From a virus (Duplodnaviria; Caudoviricetes): DNA of 63,108 nucleotides. Location of the stretch: positions 1-63,108 of the IMG/VR virus record IMGVR_UViG_3300032322_001062, one strand, 5' to 3'. Shown here piece after piece: positions 2,623 through 63,108 of the stretch (positions are counted from its first letter, which is position 1; each line of letters starts with the position of its first letter). Below the pieces are notes generated by a model, which worked only from the letters and a program-made list of their open reading frames with translations, was not told the origin of the DNA and did not search any database. The position numbers were made by a program, and so were the translations under genes.

Positions 2623-3039
2623 TTATTCCTTGAAGTTGGCGTCGAGGTACTCGGGCTTTTCGACGACGAGTTCGATGTTGGAGGGCTTGATGAGAAGGAG
2701 CTTGACGCCCTTCCACCAGATCTTCTGGCCGACCAACTTGGCATAGACGATGAAGTCGCCGGGCTTGACCCACGCGCCAGTCTTGTAAATTTCCTCGTCC
2801 TTGAAGGCGAGTTCGCCAATGGCCAGAACGCGACCAACCGTGTTCAGGTACTCACGGTCCTCGCGGAAAGTATCCGGGAGCAGGATGCCTCCTGCCGACT
2901 TACGCCGAATGGGCACGGGCCGGACAAGAATCCCTACGCCAGGAATCCTAGGCAGCGGAGACGGGTCAGGAATTTCGTCCTGTGTCATCCACTGGTCGTT
3001 CGTGATTGCCCCGTCGAGGGGCACGCGGGCGGTAAGCAT
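2623..3039 (-). CDS. groES: GroES-like co-chaperonin
   Basis: ILVRP...KSAGGILLPD...GRVLAIGE...VKPGDFIVYAK Cpn10 signature. Confidence 0.85.
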   Translation of the reverse strand: MLTARVPLDGAITNDQWMTQDEIPDPSPLPRIPGVGILVRPVPIRRKSAGGILLPDTFREDREYLNTVGRVLAIGELAFKDEEIYKTGAWVKPGDFIVYAKLVGQKIWWKGVKLLLIKPSNIELVVEKPEYLDANFKE

Positions 3040-3230
3040 TAGTTCCTTTCTTCTGCTGGCTTGGTCTCTACGAGATCGTAGAGCAGTTGCACGGCTTGGT
3101 TGAGGCCGGCAATAACGCCGCAGGCACGGGCATACTCTTCGTAGGTCTTGGCGCCGCCACGGGAAAGAAAGTCTCTTTCCCGCTCGACACGCTTCTGAAC
3201 CTCTGCTACATACTCAGATAGTAATCTCAT
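3039..3230 (-). CDS. Small head-module protein
   Basis: 63 aa, coupled to portal and groES; YEEYARACGVIAGL motif. Confidence 0.65.
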   Translation of the reverse strand: MRLLSEYVAEVQKRVERERDFLSRGGAKTYEEYARACGVIAGLNQAVQLLYDLVETKPAEERN

Positions 3231-5560
3231 TAGATAGCCGCGTTTGCCCGTTCTGCAAGCTGTTTGGCTTGAATATCCGCCAGTTTGGCGGAGTTGTCAA
3301 GTATTTTCGAAGAAGCCGAAATCTGGGCCTGCTTCTGCTTGTTCTCCGCGTCGAGCAACATGCTGGTTTCCTTGAGGTCAAGCTCGCGGTTCTTGAGTGC
3401 GATCTTGGCTGCCTCGCGGACATCCTGCGACTGGATGCGTGCCGCCGAAAGCTGAAGCTCCTGCTGGTTGAGGGCAACCATCTGCTGCTCAACGGACGGA
3501 CCCGCGCCACCCATGCCGGACGCCGCCGAGATCATCAGCATCTGCGTGGCGACTTGGGCCTGCACGTTCGGGTCTTCGATGGGCATGCCCATCTGCTGGG
3601 CCAGCAGAGCGGCCTGTGCCACAAACATCAGCACCTTGTGTTCGGCGATGTTGGCATTCAGAAGCTGGAGGCCGATGGCGATGGTCGGGTCGTTGGCGCC
3701 CTGCATCTGCGGCGTCTTGAGGAACGCTTCCTTCACAGCAATGTGAGCCGCGTGGTTCTGGCCAAGCTGGGCCTTGATGGGCTTGCCGGCCATGGCGGCC
3801 TGCACCTCGGTCAGCGGGTCGGCGCTGATGGCTTGGGCCTCGGGGTTGACGAGGAGCTTGTCCACGTTCTCGGTACCCATGGCCGCGTAGAAGCGCCGCA
3901 GCGCCTCGCGCATGTCATGGAGTTGCGGGAACTGGGCCGCCATGTTGAGTTCGATCTGAGCCCGGGCCACCCGCTGCGACTCGGTGAGGGCATTGGGGTC
4001 GGATGCCGGGATGACGTCCACGGCCGCCGGATCGAAGTCGTTGCGCTGGACGTAGGCGTTCTCGGAGCCGACCACGAAGTTGACGAGGTCGGGCAGGTTC
4101 TCGAAGTTGAGTTCGCCGATGAGCTTGAGGAACTCGCCCTGCGACTGGTGAAGGCGCTTGTGGATCGAAGAATAGAACCGCTGCGACGCTTCGATCAGGG
4201 CCAGCGTGGTGCCGACCGGGCCGTAGTTGGTGGCGTTGGCAGCGACCTCGTCGGTGGCGTCAGCGAACTTCTGGCCGCTATCCACCATGAACTTGAGCAG
4301 GGTGAAGAGGGTCTGGTTCGGCTCCTTGGCCGGCAGCGGGAAGAACGCCTTGCTCAGTTCTTCAGGTGACAGATTGACGTCACGCCACTCGCCGAAGCCC
4401 AGTGGGGTGTCGCTGTCGGAGAACTTGGCATCTTGGGACTTGAAGCCCGCCTGCCAGTTGGCATACTGACCTGCGTCGACGAGGGCGCGCAGGGCCACGG
4501 TCGCGGAGGCCGCAAGGTCGCCGATCAGGTGGACGTAGCCAAGGGCGTAGAAGCCGAAGGCCGGGATGAACTGGTCGACGGTGTACCAGATGCGCTTGGT
4601 CTTGGCGACGTCGTCCTCGCGCCAGTTGCGCTTGATGGAGTAGACGTTGCCGGTCTTGACGTTGAAGTGGACGATGTAGGGCGCCATGCCGCCGCTAGGC
4701 AGACTGGGGTCGTCGCCGTTCAGGTCGAGATAGCAGTGGGCCTCGCCGACCGTGTAGCCCTTGCGTTCGAGCGACATGTCGAAGCCTTGGGCGTTGGCGA
4801 TGGCTTCGGTGATCTCGTTGGTGTCGAGGACTTCCTCGGCATCGTTCTCGGAGACTTCGAGGAAGGTGCCTGCCGCCACAAGATTCTCCATCTTGCGGGT
4901 GGAAAGCTCCATGACCTCGATATATTCCTCGGCATCTCGGAGGTGGGTTGCCGACGGGTCGATGTAGAAGTTCTCGACGTAGACGACGGTCGGGTCGGGC
5001 GCCGAGTTCACGCTGTTCCAGCCGGCCTTGCGGATGCCGGTGCCCATGAAGCCGACGCGGAACAGGTTGCGTTCGAGGTCGGTATAGAAACCCGGCACCT
5101 GCTCGGTAAGCTGGTAGTTCATGTAGGTGCGGACGCGGGCAGCGGCCTGTTCGCGGGGAATGTCGACGTAGCCACGGACCTTGGTGCGGACGGGACCCTT
5201 GGCAGGCCACAGTTCTTGGATGGCCTTAGCCTGGAACTTGACCACGTTCTCGATGAGGAGGGGGTGGACGGCCGAGCAGGCCCCGTCGACCTCGGTGTTG
5301 CCTTGGCCCTCGGTGTTCAGGCCCAGCCAGTGGATGCCCTGCTTGATCTTCTCTTCCCACTGCTGGCGGGCGTTCTTGAAGTTCTGAAGGGCATCTTGAC
5401 GTTGGGAGCCGATGTCACGAAGTATTACATCGTCCATGCCGGCTGCGAGGTTAGCACCGAACGACATGTCGATCTCGACAATCTCGTCGGCCGGAATAAC
5501 TTCGAGCGTCTCTTCAGAGAACTCAAATTCCATTTCTGGATTTTCGAGATTATCAGACAT
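3230..5560 (-). CDS. Portal protein (podovirus-like)
   Basis: 776 aa directly after TerL; HPLLIENVVKFQA, GPVRTKV, FIPAFGFY, GTTLALIE motifs; C-terminal coiled coil. Confidence 0.9.
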   Translation of the reverse strand: MSDNLENPEMEFEFSEETLEVIPADEIVEIDMSFGANLAAGMDDVILRDIGSQRQDALQNFKNARQQWEEKIKQGIHWLGLNTEGQGNTEVDGACSAVHPLLIENVVKFQAKAIQELWPAKGPVRTKVRGYVDIPREQAAARVRTYMNYQLTEQVPGFYTDLERNLFRVGFMGTGIRKAGWNSVNSAPDPTVVYVENFYIDPSATHLRDAEEYIEVMELSTRKMENLVAAGTFLEVSENDAEEVLDTNEITEAIANAQGFDMSLERKGYTVGEAHCYLDLNGDDPSLPSGGMAPYIVHFNVKTGNVYSIKRNWREDDVAKTKRIWYTVDQFIPAFGFYALGYVHLIGDLAASATVALRALVDAGQYANWQAGFKSQDAKFSDSDTPLGFGEWRDVNLSPEELSKAFFPLPAKEPNQTLFTLLKFMVDSGQKFADATDEVAANATNYGPVGTTLALIEASQRFYSSIHKRLHQSQGEFLKLIGELNFENLPDLVNFVVGSENAYVQRNDFDPAAVDVIPASDPNALTESQRVARAQIELNMAAQFPQLHDMREALRRFYAAMGTENVDKLLVNPEAQAISADPLTEVQAAMAGKPIKAQLGQNHAAHIAVKEAFLKTPQMQGANDPTIAIGLQLLNANIAEHKVLMFVAQAALLAQQMGMPIEDPNVQAQVATQMLMISAASGMGGAGPSVEQQMVALNQQELQLSAARIQSQDVREAAKIALKNRELDLKETSMLLDAENKQKQAQISASSKILDNSAKLADIQAKQLAERANAAI

Positions 5561-7121
5561 GTGTTACTTGACTCCAATAGCTCTTGAAAGGGCGTCTACT
5601 TGAGGGCCGGTCATTGTTGCCAACCTTTTCTTGCGTCAATTCATAGCGGCGGCGCAAGTAGAGCAGGGCCATCACCATAGCATCGACGGCGTCGTCATGG
5701 GCGCCCTTTGGAAATTCGAGGGCCTCCTGCAAAAGCTCGGCCGCATATTTCCGCTTGAGGGGTAGCCAGACGCGCTGACGCTCAATAATGCCTGTCACCG
5801 CATGAGCCCTAGCCACTTTATCACGGTCGGGCTGAAAAGGCAACACAGGCAGCTTATTGAGCTTGAGGTCCTGAATTAGGGACTGACCCGAAGCTTTATT
5901 TTCGACGATTATGCGATCCGGCTTGAACGTACTGTATTGTTCTTTGGCCACCGCGCGAAGCTGCGGGTAGGACCACCGGCCCCTGACTTGGTTCAGCAGA
6001 ATGGCATTGGGCTCCTGATACTCGAAACCCTTCTCGTCGGTGAAGGTTAGGTGGAAGATGCCCCACGTCTGGATGACGGAGAAGTCGGCCTTGGCCTTGG
6101 TGGAGAAGGCGGTGTCGAGGGTCTGGATGATCTCGTCACACTCGGGCGGATCGTCCTCGTCCCAATCTTGGAAGTCGTCCTTGTTGAAGACGTTGCCGTC
6201 CTCGCCGGTCGGGGTCTGCATGTACAGGGCGCCCCAGTCGGCCCGCGACAGACCCTCGCGCGTAGCGATCAGGTCGTCCATCGTGATGTATTCGGGCCAG
6301 TAGGACTCGCTCTCGGGCAGCATCAGATATTCGGCTGCGGGCTTGTCGAGGATGGCCGGAATGGATATGACTTCCCACTGGTCGACGCGCGGGTTGCGGG
6401 CGGCCTTGTCGAGCAGGAAGCCTGAAAGGTCGCGCACATGCCACCGGGTGTTGACGAGGATGATGCGGGAGTCAGGCAGTTTACGGGAGCGGAAGCCGGG
6501 GCCGTACCAGTTGTTGACGCGCTCGCGCTCGGTGTCGGACTTAGCAGTCTGCTCGGACAGGGGGTCGTCCAAGATGCCCAGATTGAAGCGGTAACCAGCG
6601 ATGGACTTGCCCGCGCCCGCTGGCATGAAGGAGCCGCCCGTGATCAGCTTCCAACTGGTGACGCCCGACATGTCGTCGCGGATGCGAACGCCGTCGAAGA
6701 TCTCTTGGTATTCGGCAGAGCGAATGAGGTCGCGGATACGGCCGGAGCATTCGACCGCCTTGTCGGTGGTGTGCGAGATCCACATGAAGCGCCAAGTTGG
6801 GTGGCGGCCCATACACCACGCGACGAACAGCATGAGGAGGACTGACTTCATGGAGCCCGGCGGCAGCATGAGCATCAGGCGGTCGACGGACCCATCGTCA
6901 ACTTCGGCGAGGGTCGCCGCTATAGACTCGATGTGACGCCCGTCTCGGTAATCATTGCCGTCCAACATAAGGTGGGCGAGTAGTTTGACGAAGACGTAGA
7001 AGTCCTCTCGCGCCTCCATGATTGCTTTTTGATGGAGGGCGTCAGCTAGTTCCGCCTTTACTCGGAGGAGGCGTTCTTCAGTTGATTCGGAGTTTGCGCT
7101 CAATTTCCGGCTCGGCTTCAC
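5553..7121 (-). CDS. terL: Terminase large subunit
   Basis: LPPGSMKS Walker A variant, GILDDP Walker B, TRWH, nuclease motifs LDTA, VENKASG, HDDAVD. Confidence 0.95.
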   Translation of the reverse strand: MKPSRKLSANSESTEERLLRVKAELADALHQKAIMEAREDFYVFVKLLAHLMLDGNDYRDGRHIESIAATLAEVDDGSVDRLMLMLPPGSMKSVLLMLFVAWCMGRHPTWRFMWISHTTDKAVECSGRIRDLIRSAEYQEIFDGVRIRDDMSGVTSWKLITGGSFMPAGAGKSIAGYRFNLGILDDPLSEQTAKSDTERERVNNWYGPGFRSRKLPDSRIILVNTRWHVRDLSGFLLDKAARNPRVDQWEVISIPAILDKPAAEYLMLPESESYWPEYITMDDLIATREGLSRADWGALYMQTPTGEDGNVFNKDDFQDWDEDDPPECDEIIQTLDTAFSTKAKADFSVIQTWGIFHLTFTDEKGFEYQEPNAILLNQVRGRWSYPQLRAVAKEQYSTFKPDRIIVENKASGQSLIQDLKLNKLPVLPFQPDRDKVARAHAVTGIIERQRVWLPLKRKYAAELLQEALEFPKGAHDDAVDAMVMALLYLRRRYELTQEKVGNNDRPSSRRPFKSYWSQVTHV

Positions 7122-7794
7122 GCAGGATGGCAGTCAGTTCGCTGATCCGGGTATCCAGTTCCTCCTTGGAGTGGATGGTCCGGTGGACGATTTCCTTCTT
7201 CTCAACGAACATGCCAAGATACTTGGCAAGGTTTTCCATGGCGCGGTTGGCGTTGGTAAAGTCGCCAGAGGCCATAGCTTGTGTGGCAATGTCGTTGAAC
7301 CACTTGACGACATCCTCGATGTTGATTTTCATGCGTGCCTTCTCCTCAATCTCGAACGCGCTGATAAGGTCGTGGAACTCCGGGATGACCAGCATACGGT
7401 TGGCCATCTCCAACAGGACGACGGGGTTGCTGCTGTTGTAGCCCGCAAGACGCATGGCGCCGCATTTGTTGGAGCGGCCGTTCAGGGCGAACTGGCGAGC
7501 GAACTCAACCTGCTTGGGCGTCAGCTTCTTGATGGCTGTGATCTTGTCCCACTTAGCCTGCCACGTTTCGCGCAGGTGATCGCGCAGGTTGCGGATCGCG
7601 TCGACGTTTTCCTTGGTGACGGCGCGGGCAGGCTTGTGGATGTTCATGCGCCGCAGTTCACGTCGGTAGCCTTTTTGGCGATCCTTCTGCGACGGCGGGT
7701 ACTTGCGCTTACGCTTGGGCGCAGGCGCCTCCCCCTGTTCAGGAGAGGTCGCCTCCACCACTTCGTCGGCAAGATCGAAAGGTTCGTCCGTCAT
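7078..7794 (-). CDS. terS: Terminase small subunit
   Basis: Upstream of TerL; LTPKQVEFA...AMRLAGY HTH-like region and AMENLAKYLGMF motif. Confidence 0.75.
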   Translation of the reverse strand: MTDEPFDLADEVVEATSPEQGEAPAPKRKRKYPPSQKDRQKGYRRELRRMNIHKPARAVTKENVDAIRNLRDHLRETWQAKWDKITAIKKLTPKQVEFARQFALNGRSNKCGAMRLAGYNSSNPVVLLEMANRMLVIPEFHDLISAFEIEEKARMKINIEDVVKWFNDIATQAMASGDFTNANRAMENLAKYLGMFVEKKEIVHRTIHSKEELDTRISELTAILREAEPEIERKLRIN

Positions 7795-9260
7795 GCTACT
7801 CCGGCTTCGTCGTCTTCGCGGACAATCGAGATCCGAGAACGGCCCTTCTGCGAAAGACTGGTCGCCCGGCCCGCGCTAAAGAAGCGAATGCCCTGCCGTT
7901 CGAGGGCAGGACGGATACGCTTCAGTTCGGCGGCGAAGCTGTGCGAAGTCTGCGGCAGCTTCTCGCGGGGACCAATGTTCATCTCAAGCTGGCCAATCAG
8001 GTCCGAATACGTCCCCGAGAACTCCTTCTGCTTATCCATCATCCGCAGGATAGCCGAAGCCATCCCATGAAATTCGAGCATCTGGCTCTCTGCCGCAGAA
8101 CGGTTGCGCTTATAGACTTCCATAAGGCGCCCTTCCTGCCAGCCAAAAGCCTTCTCAGCCGCCACCGCCCAGACCGCAAACGCAGACATACGCGGCTTTT
8201 CAGCCAAGTGTACATTACCATAATTCTGCGTAGCAATCAACGCTGCATTCATAAGCGAGCCCAGCAGGCGGGCATGGCAGGCGTTGAAGGCTTCCCAAAA
8301 CTCGTAGTCATCGCGCCGCTTGCGAGGGTCGATGCGGGGCAGATGCACATGGATCGAGCGGTCAACAAGGTCGCCGCGCTCGACGACGTCAGGAATGCCG
8401 TTCATGGCGACGGGCCGGCAAACGCGGACTGCGGACTCCTCGGCGTTGGTGTAAAGGGCGCGGCCACCCTGTGCCCCGGTGCCGGTGCTGATGACGCAGA
8501 GAGCGTCCGACATCTTGTTGGAAATGAAGGACACGTTGTCGAAGGCGAGGACGAAGGAGTTGCGCACCATAGCCTGAAGGTCGCGCTGGTCCTCGGGCGG
8601 GGTACGCATGTCGAGGGCATGCGGGTCGATAATGCGGCGCAGCAGGCGCAGGACGGTGGACTTGCCAGAGCCCTGCTCGCCGGAGATAGTGAGGACGGGG
8701 TAAGGACCTTCGGGCCGGAGGCAGCCGAGCAGCCACGCGGTCAGGAGCATGAGGCTGTCTTCGTCGGCCGCGATGAAGTCCTTGAGGAGTTCGGGGAACT
8801 CAGAGGCGGGCGCCGAGAGGTCAGGGTCGACGAGGGGCAGCATGCCCGCGCCGCGCAGCATGCGGATATGGGTCGGGCCGCCGGGCAGCTTGGTAATGCC
8901 GGAGGTCGAAATGCACCACGCATCGTTGGCATCGTTGCCGATGTCGATGTAGAGTTCGCCGACCTTGCCGCCGATGCGGATGAAGTCCTTGACCTTGCGG
9001 CCCTGAGAGCGAACCCAGTGGGCAAAGTAGGTCTGGGCCGAGTTAAGGAGGTCGCCGCCGGGCACGATGTTGACCTGATCGACGCAGAAGGAGGTGAACC
9101 AGCCACGGAAGTCGCAGTGGCCGGCAGGCGTGATGGTCAACGTGCGCCGCACACCAGCTTCGGTGTAGTCGAGGAAGAGACGGCCATCTTCGGTGGTCCA
9201 CGGCGAAAGCTGAAGCTTCGCATCGTTGATAAGCTGGACGCGGTTGATCTTATCTGACAT
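7791..9260 (-). CDS. P-loop ATPase, probable replicative helicase/initiator without a primase domain
   Basis: GEQGSGKST Walker A, LAFDNVS Walker B, MNGI sensor, DLVDRS arginine finger; resembles helicase domains of primase-helicase fusions. Confidence 0.65.
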   Translation of the reverse strand: MSDKINRVQLINDAKLQLSPWTTEDGRLFLDYTEAGVRRTLTITPAGHCDFRGWFTSFCVDQVNIVPGGDLLNSAQTYFAHWVRSQGRKVKDFIRIGGKVGELYIDIGNDANDAWCISTSGITKLPGGPTHIRMLRGAGMLPLVDPDLSAPASEFPELLKDFIAADEDSLMLLTAWLLGCLRPEGPYPVLTISGEQGSGKSTVLRLLRRIIDPHALDMRTPPEDQRDLQAMVRNSFVLAFDNVSFISNKMSDALCVISTGTGAQGGRALYTNAEESAVRVCRPVAMNGIPDVVERGDLVDRSIHVHLPRIDPRKRRDDYEFWEAFNACHARLLGSLMNAALIATQNYGNVHLAEKPRMSAFAVWAVAAEKAFGWQEGRLMEVYKRNRSAAESQMLEFHGMASAILRMMDKQKEFSGTYSDLIGQLEMNIGPREKLPQTSHSFAAELKRIRPALERQGIRFFSAGRATSLSQKGRSRISIVREDDEAGVA

Positions 9261-9284
9261 GCAGGGCTCCTTGATCAGAAGCGC

Positions 9285-9313
9285 ATCCTACATGAGGTGA
9301 GCGTCGTGTGCAA
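9285..9313 (-). promoter_or_regulatory. Sigma70-like promoter of the ATPase gene, overlapped by GTGAG/CTCAC motifs
   Basis: TTGCAC-N17-TAGGAT; AAGGAG RBS before ATG 9260. Confidence 0.65.
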
Positions 9314-9332
9314 GAGGATTCTCACCCTCTCA

Positions 9333-10700
9333 CTACACGACGGTCCACGTCGACCCGGTCGGCACCTCGACGGTCACGCCCGTAGCAATGGTGACGGGGC
9401 CGAAGGTACCAGCATTCTTGCCAGACGGAATCAAATAGGATACCGACACGACCGTGTCGTTCAAGTAGAAGACTTGGTTGGCACCGCCGCCCGTGGCACC
9501 ACCGCCACCACCGATTGCACCCCACGTCGCCGATGTGTAGCCTTCGAAGGTATTGGAGCCACTGTTGAAGCGGATAAGGCCGGGTGTTACGGAAGTGGGC
9601 CGGGTAGCGGTAGTGCCCGAGTGGAGAAGAAGGGCGCTGTCGCCTGTGAAGTTGACGACGCTGGTGACGACGAGGCCACCGCTGACACTGACGCCGATAG
9701 TATTGGCTGCAACAGCGATGGCAAGCTGGCCGGTCATGGTGTCGCCGGCACGCAGGACGCGGAGGGAGGTTGCTGCCGAGACTGCGTTGATGGCTACGGT
9801 GTTGACGGAGACGGCAGCAGAGACTGTGCTGACCCGCACCTCAAGCGCCGAGACCACATTGTTAATGGACGTGATGGCTGCTGCATTGGTAACACCGGTA
9901 GCGGAGGCGGCACTAACGCGGATTTCGAGTGCCGACACCACGTTGTTGATAGAGGTGATTGCAGCCGCATTGGTTACGCCGGTTGCTGATGCAGCACTAA
10001 CCCTGATTTCGAGAGCAGAAACGACGTTGTTGATGGAGGTGATGGCGGCCGAGTTGGCAACGCCTGTAGCGGAAATTGCACTGACGCGGATTTCGAGGGC
10101 AGAGACTTCGGCGTCGAGGATGGCGACCGTGGACACAAGGGCCGCGATAGCCGACACGTCACCAATGGCCGAGAGCGCCGCTTCAACTAGGGAGACGCGC
10201 GTCGACAGTGCGGAAGTCACAGCATTGATAGAGGTGATCGCGGCGGTGTTGACCGACGTCAGGGCAGAGACCGCTGCCAATTGGATGTTGAGGCTAGACA
10301 CCGAAGCCGAGACTGCCGCAACACGATCAGCGAGAACAGAAACGACGTTGTTAGTAGAGGTGAGGGCCACGCCCAACGAAACGGCAGCCGCCGACACCGC
10401 ACTGACACGCACTTCAAGCGCCGAGACAACCGCATTGACGGACGTGATAGCGACCGCGTTGACAGAAGTGAGGGCCGAGACGACTGCGATCTGGGCAGCA
10501 TTGACGGAGACGGCAGCCGACACGACATCAAGGCGCGCGGAGACGGCGGCGAGGTCGTTGCTGACGGCGCTGGTAGCAAAGATGCCGATGGCCGACACAG
10601 TCGTCCGCAGTGTTCCGCTGTTCTGCACAATCGGAACAAGCTCAACCCCAGTAAGGGGGCCGGCTGGCGGAAGTTCAGAAATCTTTTTTGGATCGGCCAT
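9333..10700 (-). CDS. Tail fibre with S/A/V-rich coiled-coil shaft
   Basis: N-terminal KKISELP, 28-aa repeats, C-terminal GPVTIATGVTVEVPTGSTWTVV fibre motif. Confidence 0.75.
   Translation of the reverse strand: MADPKKISELPPAGPLTGVELVPIVQNSGTLRTTVSAIGIFATSAVSNDLAAVSARLDVVSAAVSVNAAQIAVVSALTSVNAVAITSVNAVVSALEVRVSAVSAAAVSLGVALTSTNNVVSVLADRVAAVSASVSSLNIQLAAVSALTSVNTAAITSINAVTSALSTRVSLVEAALSAIGDVSAIAALVSTVAILDAEVSALEIRVSAISATGVANSAAITSINNVVSALEIRVSAASATGVTNAAAITSINNVVSALEIRVSAASATGVTNAAAITSINNVVSALEVRVSTVSAAVSVNTVAINAVSAATSLRVLRAGDTMTGQLAIAVAANTIGVSVSGGLVVTSVVNFTGDSALLLHSGTTATRPTSVTPGLIRFNSGSNTFEGYTSATWGAIGGGGGATGGGANQVFYLNDTVVSVSYLIPSGKNAGTFGPVTIATGVTVEVPTGSTWTVV
9830..10110 (-). repeat. About 84-bp (28-aa) tandem repeats, SALEIRVSAASATGVTNAAAITSINNVV
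   Basis: Three near-identical units plus degenerate flanking copies visible in the translation; boundaries approximate. Confidence 0.85.
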
Positions 10701-10729
10701 CTTGGTTTCCCCTACGTCTCAGCTACTTG

Positions 10730-11230
10730 TTAGTTTACACCAAGTTGGTCATTATTTACAGGGGCCGCTGCCGGAGCCGGAGCGGAGGGTGCAGACCAGT
10801 TGAAAGTAAGGACAGCCAAGTCTTCTACGGTGGTGCAGGCGACGACGGCTGCTTCGTTGGCATCAGAGGCGGCACGGATGGCAGCGCGAGCAGCAAGCGT
10901 GTCGGGGTCGCAGGGCTTCGCGCCTTCGGCAGCCCGAACGACCTTCCAGTCAGTGGCAGCCAGCATGGAGCCGGCGATTGCCTTGACCTGCGCGATAGCG
11001 GCGGCCTTGAGCCCGTCGAGGTCCTTGGGCGTGGCTGTGAAGGTACCATCGCCGTTATCGGTCACCCAATAGTAGCGGTCGTCGGGGCGCGGCTGTTCCA
11101 CCACCTCCGTGATGCCAATGGCTTCGCGCTCTTCGGGGGAGGCTAGCCGCAGCCAGTTGGCCGGGTACTTGATGCCGTTCGATTCGAAGGGCATGTCAAT
11201 CGGCAGGGACACTCCATTAAGGAGAAACAT
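10730..11230 (-). CDS. Tail fibre assembly/accessory protein
   Basis: YPANWLRLASPEEREAIGI...DDRYYW...LAATDWKVVR motifs; next to fibre genes. Confidence 0.65.
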   Translation of the reverse strand: MFLLNGVSLPIDMPFESNGIKYPANWLRLASPEEREAIGITEVVEQPRPDDRYYWVTDNGDGTFTATPKDLDGLKAAAIAQVKAIAGSMLAATDWKVVRAAEGAKPCDPDTLAARAAIRAASDANEAAVVACTTVEDLAVLTFNWSAPSAPAPAAAPVNNDQLGVN

Positions 11231-13587
11231 CAGCGAGCCCTCGCTATCTTAAAAGGGTTTTCGGCAAAGGCCGCAAAAACATAGGTGCCGCCAGAGGCGT
11301 TTCGAGCCGCCCCCGTGCTACGCTGCTTAAATCCATTGGACAGGATGTCGATGGGGAAGCCGGCTGTACTGTTACCAATGCCGTCAGTCCGCTCCACCGT
11401 CGCAGCATTGGGAGTGAGGTTAAGATCCGTCGTATTCGCGGGCGCCCGCGCTGTATCGAAAACTACCCAGTCGCCCGTGGTATCGGTGCGCTTGAACATC
11501 ACCCAACGAGGGCGGAAGCCGCACCATATGAAGGGGCCGTCCGTCGAACCGTTGCCAGTGTAGGAGCCGAAACGGCTGAAACCTGGAACTTCTGACCAAA
11601 GGTAAGCAACATAGTTAAGGGTTGATCTGTTTACATCATTGTTAGCACCAACCGTAAATACGGAGGACGTAGGGCTGGTGCTATTCCACATGCTTGCCGT
11701 GGCGGCAGCATTTGTCAGGTTGAGGTACAGGTTCTGCGTGTTTGGCAAGGAGCCATGGTAGACACCCCAATGATCTGCAACGGTATTGTTCCGCGCCTTG
11801 ATAAGCATCAAGCGAGGCACAGCACCGAGATTGTGGGAAACATTCAGCGCACTGCCCGTGCCGGTGTATGTCACCACATCAAAGCCGGGCGTCACACCTT
11901 CATCCCATTGCCACGCGACATAAGTGGCAGTGTTGGTGTTGACCTGGGCGAGCGCGCCAATTGTGAAGCCGTCCGAGTTGAACGCGGTGAGGCCGGTCGT
12001 CTCGGTCGTCTCGGCGGTCGTGCTGTTGCTTTCAAGCTGAAGCTGAACGCCGCGCGTCGTGTCATATAGAGCGTGATCTGTGGCCGCAGACCGGGACTTG
12101 ATCCACACCAGATCGGGGGAGAACAACTCGCCCGTGATTGAACGCGAGGCGCCCGTGCCGGTGTAGGTGGCCACATCGAAATGCCGTGCGCCATTCTGGA
12201 TAATAGGCGTCGGCAGGTTCTGTGTATTCAACGCCAGAAAGCCGGTGGGCGGTGTGTAAGCGAAGGGACGCTGGCCGAAGTTTACCGCGTGCGTGGCCGC
12301 AGATGCAGAGTTATTTCCGTTCGCTGGGAACCACAAGCGTCCCGTCAAGTTGGTTGTGGCTGCTGGTCTTGTGTCGGTGGCCGGGTCCGAGCCGCCCTGC
12401 CATACGCCATTCTTGGAGAAGTATAGCCTACCGTTATCGAGATCAAGCGCGATACCAATGATGTCGTTTGTGGTGAAAGATGTATACGTCTGGATAATTG
12501 CGCCAGTACGGTATACAGTTCCGCCAAAGTTATAGCTAATACCATCTGCGCTTGTATAACCCGGATAATAGCTTTCTGCGGTACCGTGAACGAGAATGCC
12601 GGCAGCGCCAAGGCCGCCGCCCGTAATGGTGGTTTCCCAGTACCACTTGCCGCTACTAACGCCGGCAGTTGCCTTAACAATGCTGGTTGTCGCAAAAGGA
12701 ATGCTAACATCCAGATTTCCCGCCGAAATAGTGGAGCTACTGACGTCAAGCGGATTCCACGTTGCGTAGTTGCCCCGACCGTTAATGCGGTCGCCATAGT
12801 TGGTGGGGCTGTCAAACATGCTGTCAAAAGTGGTGCCTGCCGTCACGCTAATGTTCGTCGGCGTAAAGTTGTTACCGTTGCCCGAGAAGTCACGTCCGAT
12901 GGTTGTCGCAGTTGCGGCGCTGTTATTGGTGAACTTCAAGTAGGTGCCGTTAGTACCGTAAGTTCCGGTATAACGTCGAGGCATCCACACACCCGTAACC
13001 GGATCGGTCCGGCCAAAAGACGAAGCCGGCAGCGACTGCCCGTCAATAAAATGCACTTCGGCAAAGTACCCGTCGCAGGGAGATGCGCCGCCGTTGCCGA
13101 TGTATTGGACATTGGTGTTGCCCGCGTTGAACGCTTGGTTAAGTGAAGGATAACTCGCAGAGGAAAAAGAAGTAATCTGTGAACCGTTAACGAACAGCCT
13201 CACTCGATTGGAAGCGGTAGCCTGCGTGCTGTCATAGTTAAGAACAATATGATACCAAGCCGTGGGATCGCGGTAGAGAGCGGTCGTCTGAATGACCGTC
13301 GCAATGCCACCGTCGAAGAATGCCCGGATGGTATCGGAGGCAAACTCCAAAACGATCATGTTGCCGTTGCCGGCGGTGTTGCCGTTATAGGCAATATTGG
13401 CGCGAGATGCACCCAGCGCCCCACGCTTCACCCATGCACTCCAGGTACAGATGGTGCTGCTGGTAGAAGCCGTCGTTAGCGTGCGACTTAGCTGCGGACT
13501 CGCATTTGCGCGGAGTCGCAGCGACCGCTCGATGAGATAGTCACCGCTGCCCAGCAGAAGAGAGTTTACTTCGACCGGAAGTCCCAT
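11230..13587 (-). CDS. Tail/receptor-binding protein with ConA-like lectin and SPRY-like domains
   Basis: TWSAWVKRG, AWYHIVL, SGKWYWE, DIIGIALDLDNG, PDLVWIKSR, GFRPRWVMFK. Confidence 0.8.
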   Translation of the reverse strand: MGLPVEVNSLLLGSGDYLIERSLRLRANASPQLSRTLTTASTSSTICTWSAWVKRGALGASRANIAYNGNTAGNGNMIVLEFASDTIRAFFDGGIATVIQTTALYRDPTAWYHIVLNYDSTQATASNRVRLFVNGSQITSFSSASYPSLNQAFNAGNTNVQYIGNGGASPCDGYFAEVHFIDGQSLPASSFGRTDPVTGVWMPRRYTGTYGTNGTYLKFTNNSAATATTIGRDFSGNGNNFTPTNISVTAGTTFDSMFDSPTNYGDRINGRGNYATWNPLDVSSSTISAGNLDVSIPFATTSIVKATAGVSSGKWYWETTITGGGLGAAGILVHGTAESYYPGYTSADGISYNFGGTVYRTGAIIQTYTSFTTNDIIGIALDLDNGRLYFSKNGVWQGGSDPATDTRPAATTNLTGRLWFPANGNNSASAATHAVNFGQRPFAYTPPTGFLALNTQNLPTPIIQNGARHFDVATYTGTGASRSITGELFSPDLVWIKSRSAATDHALYDTTRGVQLQLESNSTTAETTETTGLTAFNSDGFTIGALAQVNTNTATYVAWQWDEGVTPGFDVVTYTGTGSALNVSHNLGAVPRLMLIKARNNTVADHWGVYHGSLPNTQNLYLNLTNAAATASMWNSTSPTSSVFTVGANNDVNRSTLNYVAYLWSEVPGFSRFGSYTGNGSTDGPFIWCGFRPRWVMFKRTDTTGDWVVFDTARAPANTTDLNLTPNAATVERTDGIGNSTAGFPIDILSNGFKQRSTGAARNASGGTYVFAAFAENPFKIARAR

Positions 13588-16016: not shown

Positions 16017-16228
16017 GACTTACGGGCCCTTAGAGGCAGCACCTCCATGACGGCCCGCCGTTCTTCATCAGTAAATCCGCGCCATCCCGCCAACTCCTCA
16101 AGAGTACGGCGGCAGGAGGTACAGCAAGCAGGCTCAACAGCCCGATTAACACTACACTTTCCATTACACGGGCTCTCGATCTTAGCGGATCGGGCAAGCC
16201 CCGGTTGCGCACTCGCTCCCGGTGTCAA
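16013..16228 (-). CDS. DUF1289-like Cys-rich small protein
   Basis: ESPCNGKC...CTSCRRTLEELAGW...EERRAV signature; TTG start with AGGAG RBS inside the nrdJ 3' end. Confidence 0.7.
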   Translation of the reverse strand: MTPGASAQPGLARSAKIESPCNGKCSVNRAVEPACCTSCRRTLEELAGWRGFTDEERRAVMEVLPLRARKS

Positions 16229-18215
16229 TTTCGAACTCCTGCTCGTCCTTATCGCCCTCTTCAGCCCCCTTCTGACCGCCTTCCAGCGGCTTCAGGGTGT
16301 CCGCATAGGCCCGGAACGTCGCCTCGTCCACCACTTCCTGCGGCAGATACAGGTAACCAAGGTCCTTAGCGGTCTTCGTCGGGTCAGTCCGGTACAGGAA
16401 GCTCACGCCCACATAGTGATCCCAGTTCTGATGCAGCCATTCCGCCGAAGCAGCCGCCTCTTCCGGGCTGTAGCTGATCGTGACCGAGCAGTTATGGTCC
16501 ACATAATGGTCCATCAGCAGCTTATAACGGTCCAACTGCACCGTCGCCGGCTCCAGATTCACGAACTTGCCGTCCACTTCATCGAACTTGACGTTCTCAT
16601 AAGCGACGGGGAACGTGACCAGAACGGCATCCGGGCTGGACGGGTCCTGAAACACGCGGTAGTTCGCGGCAATCAGCTTCTCAACATACGGATCGTGCTT
16701 GCTGAACCGCACATTGTTGAAGATGAACTTGCCCAGCGGCTTATGAACACCCTCAGTCGTGTCCATAATCTTGCTCAGAGTGCCCGACGGCTTGACCGTC
16801 GTGACCGCCTTCGGCCGGGGAAGCCCGAGTTCGTCGGCCATCTTGTACGCAGCCGTCTTCGCCGTCAGCTTCAGCGTCTGCCAAGCCTTCGGATCGTCCG
16901 CATACTCCCACTCAGCAACGCCCGTAATGCCCACGCCGCACAGCCGCAGGAACTCATTGTTCTCATGCCACGCGCGCTGAAGCACACCATCCACCAGATT
17001 CACGCAGGTCTGGCGGTAGTTGGCACGCGCCAGCAGTTCAGCCGTGCGCCACAGGCGATTCACCGCCTCGCCATTATAAAGGCTCAGGTTGATTTCAACC
17101 AGATTGCAGAAGCCCTTATTCGGCAGCAGGATCTCGGCGCAGGGATTCACGCCCGAAATCCACGGGGCACGGCGCTTACCCTCCACCATATTGATGAAGC
17201 CCGGCTCCGAGCCCCCAGCTTCCTGCATCAGATCAAACAGTTCCGTGATGTCGGCCTGCGTAGGACGCGACTTGAACATCACCGAGTTGTTGGACTGCTG
17301 CCGGTGGAAGTTGTTATGAACCCAGAAGTCCTTCTTCGCCTTCGCAAACTCCACCCATTCCGGGTCGCCATGCGGAACCAGTGCAATCTCAGCCGAACGC
17401 CGGCTGGAAAGGGTGGTGCCAAGGTGGTTGAGCAGGTCGAGGATGTCAATCCGGCTCAGAAGCTGGCCCGCCCGCTTGTTGAGAACTTCCGCGATCCGCT
17501 CCATCGCGGGCGCGAAAGTCTCATCGCCGCTCGAAATCCAGCCATACCCGCGCAGGCGCTGACCAGCCGGACGAATCTGGCTGAAGTCGAGACGAAGCAC
17601 ATCAGCCTTCCGCTTGCCAGCCAGCACCTTGCCAACCGACTTGGCCCACGCTTCGGCGCTGTCACCCACGCTAATAGTCCAGACGGTCTTGCCATCCTCC
17701 TGCGTGTAGGTCTCGACGTTGGTCTCGCGGCCCTTCTTCTGCTCCAGCAGATGACGCTCGCTGCGCACCAACTGAATGTCCATCGGCGTCGTGAACCCGT
17801 TCAGCGTCCCAACCACCGGCTCGAAGCCGACGCCACAACCCTGCAACAGCAGCCAGAACGCATCCACCACATCATGCACGGTCTCGATCTTCGTGAACGC
17901 GCAGTTGAACATGCTGGCCTCACGGCGCTTTGCAACTTCCGTGCCACCGAGCCACAGCGTCCGGCCGCTCACGGACCCAGCCCGGGTCAGCAGCACCTCA
18001 CGCAGTTCCTCAAGCTCGTCCTCCTGCATGATGTCCAGCGGCTTGTCGCCCAGAGCCCGCTGCCACAGCCAACGCTGGTGGCTGATCACGCGGCCCACAA
18101 TATCTTCCCACGACTCAAACCCACCGCCTTCGGTCGGGCGGGCATAGGTACGACGAATGATCGTGGCAGCGCGCGCGGACGGCATGCGCGGCTCATCGAA
18201 GTTACGCATCAACAA
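16182..18215 (-). CDS. nrdJ: Class II (B12-dependent) ribonucleotide reductase
   Basis: FNCAF, GCGVGF, RRSAEIAL, NPCAEI, TVKPSGTLS, C-terminal CATGACPIR. Confidence 0.95.
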   Translation of the reverse strand: MLMRNFDEPRMPSARAATIIRRTYARPTEGGGFESWEDIVGRVISHQRWLWQRALGDKPLDIMQEDELEELREVLLTRAGSVSGRTLWLGGTEVAKRREASMFNCAFTKIETVHDVVDAFWLLLQGCGVGFEPVVGTLNGFTTPMDIQLVRSERHLLEQKKGRETNVETYTQEDGKTVWTISVGDSAEAWAKSVGKVLAGKRKADVLRLDFSQIRPAGQRLRGYGWISSGDETFAPAMERIAEVLNKRAGQLLSRIDILDLLNHLGTTLSSRRSAEIALVPHGDPEWVEFAKAKKDFWVHNNFHRQQSNNSVMFKSRPTQADITELFDLMQEAGGSEPGFINMVEGKRRAPWISGVNPCAEILLPNKGFCNLVEINLSLYNGEAVNRLWRTAELLARANYRQTCVNLVDGVLQRAWHENNEFLRLCGVGITGVAEWEYADDPKAWQTLKLTAKTAAYKMADELGLPRPKAVTTVKPSGTLSKIMDTTEGVHKPLGKFIFNNVRFSKHDPYVEKLIAANYRVFQDPSSPDAVLVTFPVAYENVKFDEVDGKFVNLEPATVQLDRYKLLMDHYVDHNCSVTISYSPEEAAASAEWLHQNWDHYVGVSFLYRTDPTKTAKDLGYLYLPQEVVDEATFRAYADTLKPLEGGQKGAEEGDKDEQEFEIDTGSECATGACPIR

Positions 18216-18264
18216 CTCCCTATATCAGGTGAACAACCACTATACCAAAAACCAGCCCACTTTA

Positions 18265-18903
18265 CTACCGCGCTGCGGTCAGGGCTGCCCACGAAAACGG
18301 GAAAAGCTCTGCCATCTTAGGCCCAATCTTCTCCACAACCTCGCGGGTTTCACGCTGCGCATCAGGCTTGACCCGAAGGCCCCACACCCGCGCCCAGCCC
18401 AGCAAACTACCAGTCCAGTGCCACTCCGTATACATGTTCTGCGGCAGGATCATCCGCGCCTGCTCGGCACAGCAACCCTCCGCAACCATGCGCTTGTAAT
18501 CCCACACCAGCGACCGGGCCGCAATATCCACCCGCTCCGTCACACCATACTTGTCCTGCCACTGTTCGTCGGTGCTACCCTGCTTGATATCCTCAGAACC
18601 CCGACGCCACTCGCGCGGCCAGTACAGTTCCGGCGTATCCTTCACATAGCGGCGGCTGATCTCGCTCCACACGAAGCCGATCTGGTGCTTGGCCAACTGC
18701 CTCGCAACAAAGATCGGTGCCTTGAAGTGGAAGCTCACATGCGGGTGCGCGAACGGCAACTCATGCTTATGCCGCGCCAGATAGCTCAGAAGCCGGCCAT
18801 CCTTCTCAGGCCGGAACTCCTGCACCCGCTTCCCAAACGACACGCGGGCCGCGTTGACAACCGTCAGGTCGTCCCCGTAGTGGCCCAGATAGGTCACATC
18901 CAC
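18265..18903 (-). CDS. thyX: Flavin-dependent thymidylate synthase
   Basis: VVNAARVSF, PIFVARQLAKHQ, SEISRRY, EQARMILP, AQRETRE. Confidence 0.95.
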   Translation of the reverse strand: MDVTYLGHYGDDLTVVNAARVSFGKRVQEFRPEKDGRLLSYLARHKHELPFAHPHVSFHFKAPIFVARQLAKHQIGFVWSEISRRYVKDTPELYWPREWRRGSEDIKQGSTDEQWQDKYGVTERVDIAARSLVWDYKRMVAEGCCAEQARMILPQNMYTEWHWTGSLLGWARVWGLRVKPDAQRETREVVEKIGPKMAELFPFSWAALTAAR

Positions 18904-18932
18904 CGATAGCTCTCCTCGTTGATGGGAGACGC

Positions 18933-19379: not shown

Positions 19380-19650
19380 GAGTAGGTGAGAAGCCCCGCG
19401 CAGTGAGAAAGTCCAAAAGCCTTCCTCCCTCCCCGGGCCCAGCTAAGTCATTGAAATCATTGAAGAAGTGAGAAGGTGAGCGAGTGAGCGCGTTTTTCCA
19501 ACCTTTTCTATATAATACTCTTACTTCTTCTCTCATAAAAAGGGTACGCTCACCATTCTCACTTCCTCACCTTCAGGGCTTACGCCCTTGATATATAAGC
19601 CTTTTTGCGGTGAGAATCCCCGGTGAGCGTTACGCTCCCGTAACTCACCT
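19380..19650. other. Putative replication origin 1 (GTGAG x3, AT-rich core, CTCAC x3)
   Basis: GTGAG at 19468/19476/19484, AT-rich spacer, CTCAC at 19549/19558/19566; local G/C strand bias appears to flip here. Confidence 0.6.
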
Positions 19651-21444: not shown

Positions 21445-22071
<627 letters not shown>

Positions 22072-22078
22072 GAAAGGA

Positions 22079-22107
22079 ATTATATCACACATGCCTGTGT
22101 GATTCAA
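22079..22107 (-). promoter_or_regulatory. Sigma70 promoter for the HNH gene with a palindromic spacer
   Basis: TTGAAT-N17-TATAAT, 7 nt before ATG; ATCACACA-N4-TGTGTGAT at 22084..22103. Confidence 0.7.
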
Positions 22108-22134: not shown

Positions 22135-22340
22135 TTGGACGCTCACCTAGTTAAGCCGTTAAAAACATTGAGGATTTTGCCAAAGGTGAGGGAGTGAGCG
22201 GAGCGCGGCCAACCTTTTATATATGTTCTTTCTTTTCCTATAAGGAAAGCGGTCCCTCACCACGCTCACCTTCTCACTTTCGCGCGGAGAGCCTAGAGAT
22301 ACCTAGGTTTTTTAGGTGAGAGTGTAGGTGAGAATCCTAG
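22135..22340. other. Putative replication origin 2 (diverged copy of 19380..19650)
   Basis: GTGAG at 22186/22194, shared CCAACCTTTT..TATA core, CTCAC at 22256/22265/22273 (same 9 and 8 nt spacing). Confidence 0.55.
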
Positions 22341-34982: not shown

Positions 34983-35268
34983 CAACACTGCGACCGTCTT
35001 GTCAGTTGACGAGGACTTCATCAAGATCTCACTTGATGACGAGACTGCCGACATGATCTTGTGTCAGTTGCTTCGGCATCAGGCGCAGGTTATCTTCAAG
35101 TGCATGCAACAGTCGGTGACTGAGATCTACGAGGACTATAGCCAGACGTATCTGTGGGAGGATTTGCAGCGCGCTATGAAGCATATCGAGGCGATCAACG
35201 TGCTGCTCGATTATTATGGCCAGCCGATGATTGACCTTCCCGCTGAAATGGAGAGGCGCTCAAAGTGA
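34975..35268 (+). CDS. Hypothetical protein
   Basis: Overlapping starts and stops in the operon. Confidence 0.6.
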   Translation: MANNTATVLSVDEDFIKISLDDETADMILCQLLRHQAQVIFKCMQQSVTEIYEDYSQTYLWEDLQRAMKHIEAINVLLDYYGQPMIDLPAEMERRSK

Positions 35269-36209
35269 AGCTGGCGCTGGTTGTTGACTGGCCTGCGATT
35301 GACGCAGCGCCGGGCCAGCCCTTCTCCGAGTGGGAGTGGCAGGTCATCAAGGAGTTGATGGAGGCGGCCGGCTTCAAGCCGACCGTCATCCACACTGCCT
35401 TCCGCGCTTACGTCGCCAAGTGGCACACCCTCTTTGCGGGTAGCAAGCCGGGCGGTGAGTTGGCGTCTACGGCTAAGGAAGATCAGGCCAAGCTGGTCGA
35501 GAAGCTGAAGGGCTTCGACATCGCGTTGACGATGGGGCAGCACGCCATGTTCTGCCTGACTGGCGAGACCAAGATCGACACCTTCCGGGGCACCCACATC
35601 GACAGTCCCTTCGTCGAGGGGTTGCAGGTGGTGCCGACCTACGCACCCAACATCTTCGCCCGCATGGCGTGGAACGAGCGGCCCGTTGTGGTGTCGGCGA
35701 TGCGTAAGGCGCGCAAGCGTTTCGAGGACAGGCCGCGCACGGTCTACATCCCCGAGACGGTCGCCGACCTCTACGAGTTCTCGACCAAGCACATTGGTAA
35801 CGAGATCGTGTTCGACGTCGAAACCAACAAGTCGTGCCGCATCACTGAGTTCTCGGCGGCAACCTCGTCAGGCTGCTGCCTCTACGTCCACCTTGAAGAT
35901 CGCAACTACAGGTCGGTGTGGTCGGAGGCTGACGAGTTGGACATCTGGTTGTGGCTGCGGTTCTTGGCCAGCCGCCACGATCTGGCGTGGGGTTTTCATA
36001 ACGCCACCTATGACTTGACTTACCTCGATGCCTACGGTATACGACCGCGTGGCCCGATCTTCGACACGATGCTTCGTCACCACGCATGGCAGCCGGAATG
36101 GGAAAAGAGCTTGGGCTTCCTCGCTTCCCTCCACATTCCGACCCGTGCATGGAAGCATCTGCGGACCAAGGCCAAGAAGGACTTCAACAAGGGCGGCTCA
36201 GTCGACTGA
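35265..36209 (+). CDS. DNA polymerase N-terminal part: degenerate UDG-like domain plus 3'-5' exonuclease ExoI/ExoII
   Basis: GQPF..., TMGQHA, VVPTYAP (UDG4-like); VFDVET, FHNATYD, FDTML, SLGFLAS. Confidence 0.75.
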   Translation: MKLALVVDWPAIDAAPGQPFSEWEWQVIKELMEAAGFKPTVIHTAFRAYVAKWHTLFAGSKPGGELASTAKEDQAKLVEKLKGFDIALTMGQHAMFCLTGETKIDTFRGTHIDSPFVEGLQVVPTYAPNIFARMAWNERPVVVSAMRKARKRFEDRPRTVYIPETVADLYEFSTKHIGNEIVFDVETNKSCRITEFSAATSSGCCLYVHLEDRNYRSVWSEADELDIWLWLRFLASRHDLAWGFHNATYDLTYLDAYGIRPRGPIFDTMLRHHAWQPEWEKSLGFLASLHIPTRAWKHLRTKAKKDFNKGGSVD

Positions 36210-36490: not shown

Positions 36491-36823
36491 ATGAATGACG
36501 ACGATGCTGCGATCCGCCGGCTTTGGGCCAGCGTAATTATTCAGGCCCTGATCGACGCCACGTCTGAGCCGAAGACCCCGCAGGGGGTTGTGCATAAGAA
36601 GCAGGCACAGGCGTGGATCACGGCGGAGTTTGGCACGACTGCCCAGAACTTTGAGGGCATCTGCCTTGCTGCCAGCATCGAGCCTGTCAGGGTGCGGACC
36701 TTCATCAAGAACTATGATGGGCCGCCCTTGACGCTTCACATCATGTCCCGTATGCGGGATTCGTTTCTCAAGGGGGACAGTGGTGAAGACTCTTCAGTTG
36801 CAGAACCTGACGATCACGCCTGA
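36491..36823 (+). CDS. Phage protein between the polymerase halves
   Basis: RRLWASVIIQALIDA...AWI...NFEGICLAASIEP motif. Confidence 0.65.
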   Translation: MNDDDAAIRRLWASVIIQALIDATSEPKTPQGVVHKKQAQAWITAEFGTTAQNFEGICLAASIEPVRVRTFIKNYDGPPLTLHIMSRMRDSFLKGDSGEDSSVAEPDDHA

Positions 36824-62985: not shown

Positions 62986-63108
62986 CGCGAGGGTCGGGTG
63001 GTCAGTCGCAAACAGCGGCTTGCCGTCGCCGCCAGCGTAGAGCGAGCTAGTGGAGAAGCCGTTGTTGTAGACGTTGGCGGCCTTGACCTGCTTGGCATTC
63101 GCCATCGC
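62986..63108. repeat. Terminal overlap copy of 1..123
   Basis: Exact match. Confidence 0.97.

Follow-up and report, generated by a model that had tools for sequence, protein, structure and literature searches.

GTGAG repeats of two origin-like elements recur in the promoter of a predicted D5-like helicase gene of an uncultured tailed phage

The stretch of DNA described here (hereafter the window) is the complete 63,108-bp IMG/VR virus record IMGVR_UViG_3300032322_001062 (Duplodnaviria; Caudoviricetes), and our subject is the short promoter region ahead of one of its open reading frames (ORFs), 7791-9260, which encodes a predicted ATPase of the helicase type. Repeats in this promoter recur in two origin-like elements elsewhere in the same genome. 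Genes of the window are arranged in strand blocks. Those on the minus strand run from about 16 kb down to position 1 and from 63 kb down to 43.5 kb, and code for tail-fibre-like proteins, the helicase, TerS, TerL, the portal and further virion proteins. The plus-strand block, from 16 to 43.5 kb, includes genes for rIIA/rIIB-like proteins, a Cas4-like exonuclease, a Sak4-like annealing protein, a methyltransferase, a split PolA, a dUTPase and a holin.

A gap of 72 bp separates ORF 9333-10700 from the helicase ORF. Read on the minus strand, it runs TAG-TGAGAGG-GTGAGAATCC-TC-TTGCAC-ACGACGCTCACCTCATG-TAGGAT-(12 nt)-AAGGAG-(6 nt)-ATG, so that the promoter is, in short, GTGAG-N3-GTGAGAATCC-N2-TTGCAC-17 nt-TAGGAT with an inverted CTCAC within the 17-nt spacer. 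Its features are the following.

9335-9333, minus strand: stop codon TAG of ORF 9333-10700
9329..9333, minus strand: distal direct GTGAG pentamer, sharing its first G with the final base of the upstream ORF's stop codon
9316..9326, minus strand: proximal direct iteron GGTGAGAATCC, 2 nt upstream of the -35
9308..9313, minus strand: -35-like hexamer TTGCAC (TTGACA, TTGCAA or TTGCAT in relatives)
9295..9305, minus strand: inverted iteron GACGCTCACCT (AGGTGAGCGTC on the plus strand), within the 17-nt spacer 9291-9307
9285..9290, minus strand: -10-like hexamer TAGGAT, of which TAnnnT is kept in relatives
9267..9272, minus strand: Shine-Dalgarno sequence AAGGAG, 6 nt ahead of the ATG at 9260

This minus-strand reading bears out the motif strings and coordinates that a preliminary description, made from the letters of the window, had given for the promoter of the ATPase gene. 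GGTGAG and CTCACC flank the -35, forming an iteron-like inverted repeat that overlaps the promoter of the candidate initiator. The promoter fell below the threshold of a sigma-70 scan and was not listed by it, because TTGCAC matches TTGACA at three of six positions.

The same repeats are concentrated at three places in the window. GGTGAGAATCC occurs exactly at 9316(-), 19609(+) and 22327(+); with at most one mismatch it has four matches against 1.10 expected, a number reached in 1 of 100 shuffles. GACGCTCACCT occurs exactly at 9295(-) and 22138(+), and its four matches at the same tolerance (1.47 expected; four reached in 8 of 100 shuffles) are not significant alone. At the core of these repeats is the pentamer GTGAG, which in its fuller form reads RGTGAG with A, C or G after it. 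Eighteen of the 44 GTGAG[AC] sites in the window fall within 9297-9328 (three sites), 19386-19623 (nine) and 22141-22328 (six). These three places also hold all eight tandem GTGAG-N2-5-GTGAG pairs and all five occurrences of GGTGAGCGT; under 500 block shuffles the tandem pair was found 0.71 times on average and three times at most, and the reversed-motif control gave one match. The sharing of motifs between the promoter and the iteron elements is well above chance. Beyond the two origin-like regions, the promoter of the helicase's own gene is the sole iteron cluster of the window, which is what autoregulation, and not a general regulator, would be expected to produce.

The two origin-like elements are built as follows.

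19468..19570, no strand assigned: origin-like element A, with three GTGAG (8-nt period), a 60-nt centre and three CTCAC
22138..22337 (core 22186-22277), no strand assigned: origin-like element B, with two GTGAG (22186-22198), a 57-nt centre and three CTCAC (22256-22277)

Against a genome A+T content of 40%, the centre of element A, which holds TATATAAT, reaches 65% and that of element B 54%. Extra sites of element A lie at 19385-19407 and 19609-19646; element B has an outer CTCAC at 22138-22148 and, at 22316-22337, a direct pair with GGTGAGAATCC at its end, and each element has a copy of GGTGAGAATCC some 40 nt to its right. With pentanucleotide iterons in opposed sets about an AT-rich centre, both elements have the make-up of origins of the type known from Staphylococcus aureus pathogenicity islands (SaPIs). 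The sigma-70 scan did not list the AT-rich centres of either element as promoters. The cumulative GC skew has a local minimum near 18-20 kb, which was set aside as evidence because the switch of the genes between strands confounds it.

A search of viral contigs with the ATPase returned 97 related stretches, of which 80, at 82-100% identity, were kept. The arrangement GTGA[GA]-N3-5-GTGA[GA]-N4-9-TTGNNN-N17-TANNNT, followed by AGGAG and ATG, precedes the helicase gene at 79 of the 80 loci, so that an earlier expectation, under which relatives devoid of the motif ahead of the orthologous gene would speak against autoregulation, fails to overturn that idea. In all 79 fitting loci the spacer between -35 and -10 is 17 nt long, and judged by its hexamers the conserved TTGNNN-17-TANNNT is a sigma-70-type promoter in each of them. 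The -35 reads TTGACA (24 loci), TTGCAC (23), TTGCAA (16), TTGCAT (12), TTGCGT (3) or TTGCCT (1), and the -10 is variable apart from T1, A2 and T6, which are always retained. CTCAC is exact in the spacer of 73 of the 80 loci and replaced by TTCAC in six; locus L062 has the direct pair and TTGACA and no inverted copy. The upstream gene differs among relatives while the promoter architecture persists, and since the sequence upstream thus comes from different genes, the motif block has been preserved as a whole at the boundary between modules. In relatives at 74-75% identity the direct repeats persist: three of these relatives (L123, L157, L174) combine them with one or two inverted copies located at the -35 or beyond it, altered in number and shifted in position, and in three loci readable only to just past TTGC (L120, L155, L156) the direct repeats are seen.

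Ten larger related records were scanned for the three-place pattern. In eight of them (G001, G002, G004, G005, G007, G008, G010 and G011) tandem pairs at the helicase promoter are accompanied by two clusters 7-11 kb off, and the clusters read from the sequence (G001, G002, G004, G005) show opposed orientation, an AT-rich core and a TATATAAT-like sequence. The remaining two, G003 and G009, are fragments; both show the promoter pairs, and G009 also has a partial cluster at its contig end. A reversed-pattern control gave no match in nine records and one in G009. The observation that one motif is common to the ATPase promoter and the iteron elements, as first proposed from the window, is therefore confirmed, and it is strongly conserved in relatives. 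An alignment-based scan led mostly back to this clade. Of the distant homologues used as queries, P0004, P0005 and P0006 gave no viral locus and P0003 gave one, L114, which at 44% identity to the window's protein retains the order ATPase (helicase), small ORF, terL, portal.

Some further repeats are found near these sites. In L114, three GTGGC repeats with a period of 10-11 nt occupy 1261-1292, in a 385-bp divergent gap upstream of the helicase gene, in place of GTGAG; elsewhere this triple repeat is not enriched (five matches versus two in the control). A TCAATGA-type direct repeat (e.g. AATGATTTCAATGACTTAG) flanks most origin-like elements in relatives (G001, G002, G004, G005; L089-L108) and is found on one side only of element A in the window (19444-19462); we take it to resemble the IHF consensus WATCAANNNNTTR. 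At 19621-19646, right after the GGTGAGAATCC copy at 19609, a near-palindrome GGTGAGCGTTACG-CTCC-CGTAACTCACC joins a direct and an inverted iteron and is capable of forming a hairpin.

An inverted arrangement of this kind could also be kept for the sake of a hairpin, in RNA or DNA, at the end of the upstream gene, serving as a processing site, stabiliser or terminator, with the likeness to the origin motif being secondary. The segment 9345-9255 (minus strand) has a predicted fold of -46.8 kcal/mol with a z-score of -5.8, and most relatives can form a stem between the direct and the inverted site, both of which fit such a role. One predicted hairpin spans the distal iteron and the -35; in a second, CATGTAGG (overlapping the -10) is paired with CCTGCATG (containing the start codon), and the two enclose an inner stem of CUUCU (anti-Shine-Dalgarno) with the Shine-Dalgarno AGGAG. 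Of 45 distinct aligned sequences, 44 retain this inner stem, with no double compensatory changes, and RNAalifold retained only its 5 bp; outer stems of at least 6 nt occur in 8 of the 45 sequences, compared with 6.5% of cross-pairings. The iteron arms pair almost as well with the arms of other sequences as with their own (mean helix 7.5 versus 7.9 nt), a result on which the RNA hairpin was dropped as the main explanation. Moreover, the long stem of the window is lineage-specific, no T-run follows the stem, and the direct repeats and their identity with the origin iterons would be left unexplained, so that we regard a hairpin function as the source of the arrangement as very improbable. Since the 5' arms lie upstream of the expected transcript start, the hairpins could form only in read-through RNA from upstream genes, where, as the folding suggests, they might mask the ribosome-binding site of the helicase gene.

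The protein encoded behind this promoter is, by its predicted fold and its motifs, a D5-like helicase of superfamily 3 (SF3).

7791..9260, minus strand: D5-like SF3 helicase, 489 amino acids (aa), assigned from fold and motifs

It carries a Walker A motif GEQGSGKST (194-202), a Walker B motif VLAFDN (237-242) and a motif C asparagine, N287. Across 40 homologues K200, D241 and N242 never vary, and N287 is kept in 90% or more. An AlphaFold2 (AF2) model built from 40 sequences reached a pLDDT of 90.6 and a pTM of 0.89, and Foldseek matched it to PDB entries with probability 1.00 and E values of 4e-10 to 5e-8, including African swine fever virus (ASFV) PrimPol, the C-terminal region of NrS-1, the SaPI5 primase-helicase 7ola (TMq 0.50, TMt 0.55), SCCmec Cch and poxvirus D5/E5. 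In BFVD, the whole length matched the DNA helicase of Microbacterium phage Zeta1847 (E 1.6e-33, TMq 0.83), and tblastn gave 33.5% identity to the Zeta1847 gene annotated as DNA helicase or primase. Pfam yielded sub-threshold P-loop matches only (AAA_16 and AAA_22 among them), and the helicase matched no PHROG and no NCBIfam model. Exhaustive searching with HMMER brought up 16,742 cluster representatives at E <= 1e-3. Many of these homologues are 600-1,000 aa long and match through their C-terminal 440 residues; among ten submitted to Pfam, P0014 has an N-terminal DnaG-type primase, P0127 is a PolA fusion, one gave a weak AAA match and seven belong to no family. BLAST of the N-terminal extensions of long homologues against all window ORFs found nothing except PolA, with P0127. 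Six-frame searches of the window gave no DnaB_C, Prim-Pol, Toprim_2 or Rep3_N match (PF01051: 0 at E <= 0.01), and no other helicase or initiator was found among the 63 ORFs scanned with at least one profile library.

Residues of about 399-481 of the helicase model form a C-terminal domain of helix-strand-helix-helix-strand-strand order (H-S-H-H-S-S), which reached a pLDDT of 85.9 when modelled alone. The Foldseek list for this domain is dominated by winged helices, mostly PadR/LmrR, Pex, Stf76, RTP and MarR, and PDB 1ka8, of interest for the comparison with phage P4 alpha, is absent among the matches listed. From its topology and these weak matches, the domain appears winged-helix-like.

Downstream of the helicase, the gene order leads directly into the packaging genes.

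7078..7794, minus strand: terS, whose start overlaps the helicase stop by 4 nt
5553..7121, minus strand: terL, overlapping terS
3230..5560, minus strand: portal, overlapping terL

Only one weak terminator-like hairpin, within terS, was found in the helicase-terS-terL-portal stretch. The preliminary description had the promoter's transcript continue into terS-terL-portal; the overlapping ORFs and the single weak hairpin agree with this, and co-transcription itself is plausible. Because terS begins only 1.5 kb downstream, the GTGAG arrays might be thought of as targets of the small terminase (pac-type sites) or of some other packaging factor, in which case their placement ahead of helicase-terS-terL would reflect packaging and not replication. 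Also in its favour, the record has only a 123-bp exact direct overlap between its ends (1-123 and 62986-63108), which is compatible with a circular assembly and resembles true termini less than it does the overlap left when a circular or permuted genome is assembled. On the other hand, the main arrays are 10-13 kb from terS and have the symmetry usual for origins, with opposed sets about an AT-rich core, and the promoter sites keep a fixed register with the -35 and the -10; of the explanations discussed here, a packaging function is the least probable.

The reading that these observations support best is that the helicase is an iteron-binding initiator that autoregulates its own gene. It draws on homology and architecture, and we would give it about an even chance. 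According to this model, the product of ORF 7791-9260 would be a self-loading D5-like SF3 replicative helicase-initiator, whose C-terminal winged-helix-like domains would recognise the RGTGAG iteron. The opposed iteron sets around the AT-rich cores at 19.5 kb and 22.2 kb would load helicase hexamers and would thereby act as origins. Three more iterons, two direct ones upstream of the -35 and one inverted in the spacer, would place the same protein in the sigma-70-type promoter of its gene, where occupied sites, above all the spacer site, would hinder RNA polymerase. The outcome would be negative autoregulation of the helicase-terS-terL-portal transcript begun at this promoter, which is the simplest reading because the spacer site would clash with RNA polymerase and the direct sites abut the -35. 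The preliminary description had likewise seen in the ATPase a self-repressing iteron-binding initiator. The sharing of the motif, its conservation, the SF3 fold of the protein and the operon layout lend this proposal partial support, while it is by inference that the helicase would be the binder, that its binding would repress, that the elements at 19.5 kb and 22.2 kb would fire as origins and that replication would be coupled to packaging.

The helicase may bind its promoter iterons with a consequence other than simple repression, namely activation, handcuffing with the origins as a copy-number sensor, or use of the promoter as an auxiliary loading site. In favour of such outcomes are the position of two sites just upstream of a weak -35 (TTGCAC), from which activation could act, and the conservation of three separate iteron places per genome. 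The inverted site, however, is within a spacer of the optimal 17 nt, and an operator inside a promoter spacer usually blocks polymerase. In addition, the A+T content between the facing promoter iterons is 47%, compared with 65% and 54% in the origin-like centres, so that an unwinding element is absent. These outcomes appear rather unlikely to us.

Several points weigh against the autoregulating helicase. GTGAG is invariant in all relatives of at least 74% identity, so co-variation of motif and protein cannot be scored, and the distant L114, on a contig 46% complete, is without GTGAG upstream of its helicase gene. The Pfam models D5_N, Pox_D5 C-terminal and primase-helicase (DUF5906 and the like) do not match the protein. 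SaPIs have one ori directly downstream of rep, whereas the window has two elements about 10 kb away and the helicase is followed by terS. A repressing helicase would shut off terS, terL and portal as well, unless upstream promoters serve them. The C-terminal domain has no significant Foldseek match (best E 0.17); the winged helix whose presence the preliminary description proposed to check there is suggested by the topology of the model and lacks statistical support. Finally, the primase-helicase operon of pRN1 is described as being controlled by a separate small repressor (PMC4234260).

The last two points also favour the possibility that another DNA-binding protein, either a small phage regulator from among the unannotated ORFs or a host factor, recognises GTGAG at all three places and controls helicase and packaging expression, the helicase itself not being the binder; most small ORFs at about 19-25 kb are indeed without family assignment. 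No candidate regulator was identified, the element architecture is that described for self-loading SF3 helicases, and beyond the origin-like regions the sites are confined to the promoter of the helicase itself. We prefer the helicase as the GTGAG binder mainly because elements A and B agree in every point with the SaPI origin description and the protein fold corresponds as well, and a separate regulator seems to us unlikely, though it is the likeliest of the alternatives.

If the helicase is the binder, its iterons might even serve as a replication-counting timer: promoter-bound helicase would restrain the packaging transcript early, and newly made origins would titrate the helicase off and release the packaging genes. 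Each new genome copy would add roughly 20 origin iterons, and release would follow DNA copy number. We consider this extension speculative and improbable.

The closest parallels come from the SaPIs, whose Reps are SF3 helicases doubling as initiators, with a C-terminal winged helix that recognises penta- or hexanucleotide iterons placed in opposed sets either side of an AT-rich region (PMC9371898; bioRxiv 10.64898/2026.10.17.759575). As described for the cryo-EM structure of PriRep5 on ori, the C-terminal domains of one hexamer contact three direct and one inverted iteron (bioRxiv 10.64898/2026.10.17.759575). The window resembles these systems in the D5-like SF3 fold of its helicase, with 7ola among the best PDB matches, in the predicted winged-helix topology of the C-terminal domain, in pentanucleotide iterons opposed round an AT-rich centre, and in having direct and inverted iterons together. 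Sequence identity to the SaPI structures is 9-12% in the Foldseek alignments. Unlike in SaPIs, the helicase gene is part of a 63-kb phage and heads a terS-terL-portal operon, and in contrast to the SaPI Reps as the cited papers describe them, iterons also occur inside the helicase's own promoter. Phage P4 alpha and pRN1 ORF904 likewise have an SF3 helicase followed by a C-terminal winged helix (PMC2777425). The window protein is like P4 alpha in this order, its C-terminal domain being winged-helix-like, and differs from it in the absence of a primase domain, P4 alpha combining a DnaG-type primase with the SF3 helicase. P4 has two separated iteron regions, ori and crr.

In iteron plasmids, an inverted iteron-like sequence overlaps the promoter of the Rep gene (pPS10 RepA, F RepE, R6K pi), and the same protein acts at the origin. 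The inverted iteron-like repeat over the promoter of the candidate initiator is alike, although the likeness is functional only: plasmid Reps are of the Rep_3 type with two winged helices (WH-WH) and no helicase activity, and the window has no Rep3_N match. SV40 large T antigen and adeno-associated virus (AAV) Rep78/68 are SF3 helicase-initiators that bind penta- or tetranucleotide origin repeats; the same sites overlap or control their own promoters, at which they self-repress. Their origin-binding domain is N-terminal and of a different fold, unlike in the window helicase, and their hosts are eukaryotic. The regulatory logic itself is hence known from plasmid Reps and from SV40 T antigen and AAV Rep, and what we describe here is a variant of such logic. 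A literature search found no report of self-regulation through origin iterons for phage or satellite self-loading helicases.

With regard to the rest of the genome, a search of a phage collection gave no DNA match for 7000-12000 and no close cultured phage. The nearest isolate by TerL is Pelagibacter phage HTVC023P (37% identity), which has no helicase annotated upstream of terL. Rfam and tRNA scans of the window found nothing. Directly adjoining the iteron region, at 16047-18909 (plus strand), are a 757-aa ORF (16047-18320) and a neighbouring 250-aa ORF, neither of which matches Pfam, PHROGs or NCBIfam; a search of the ESM Atlas with the 757-aa product gave nothing informative (best score 0.84), and the end of the 250-aa ORF is conserved in relative G001 (79%, tblastx). 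As nothing in the genome was recognised as a primase, both are candidates for that role. Two ORFs, 35265-36209 and 36780-38228, make up DNA polymerase I, with exonuclease and polymerase separate and a gap of about 570 nt between them. In the virion module, 47591-53020 (minus strand) encodes a 1,809-aa protein whose sole match is phrog_11358, a 3,431-position profile of unknown function, at profile positions 2877-3303.

Close to element B, at 22071-22107 (minus strand), a strong sigma-70-like promoter, TTGAAT-17-TATAAT with a TG extension, precedes ORF 21445-22071 and contains a perfect palindrome, TCACACA-N4-TGTGTGA, in its spacer. The ATG of this ORF follows the -10 by just 7 nt, so the mRNA may be leaderless; its 208-aa product has no Pfam match. 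The stretch at 20.7-22.1 kb is nearly without counterpart in G001, where tblastx gave just two short matches, and may thus be an inserted module.

Taken at their face, the shared repeats suggest, and do not prove, that the helicase controls its own gene. If the helicase does bind these sites, it would be a bacterial-virus SF3 helicase-initiator that regulates its own promoter through origin iterons, and the timer, if true, would represent a clamp-independent coupling of late gene expression to phage replication. The helicase gene heads the packaging operon, with synteny kept even at 44% identity, and the site is therefore a testable candidate link between replication and packaging-gene expression. 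The uncultured phage group concerned is widespread, with about 100 related viral contigs in one collection, and the iteron and protein together provide an experimentally tractable pair for a large helicase family (the 16,742 cluster representatives) that Pfam does not model.

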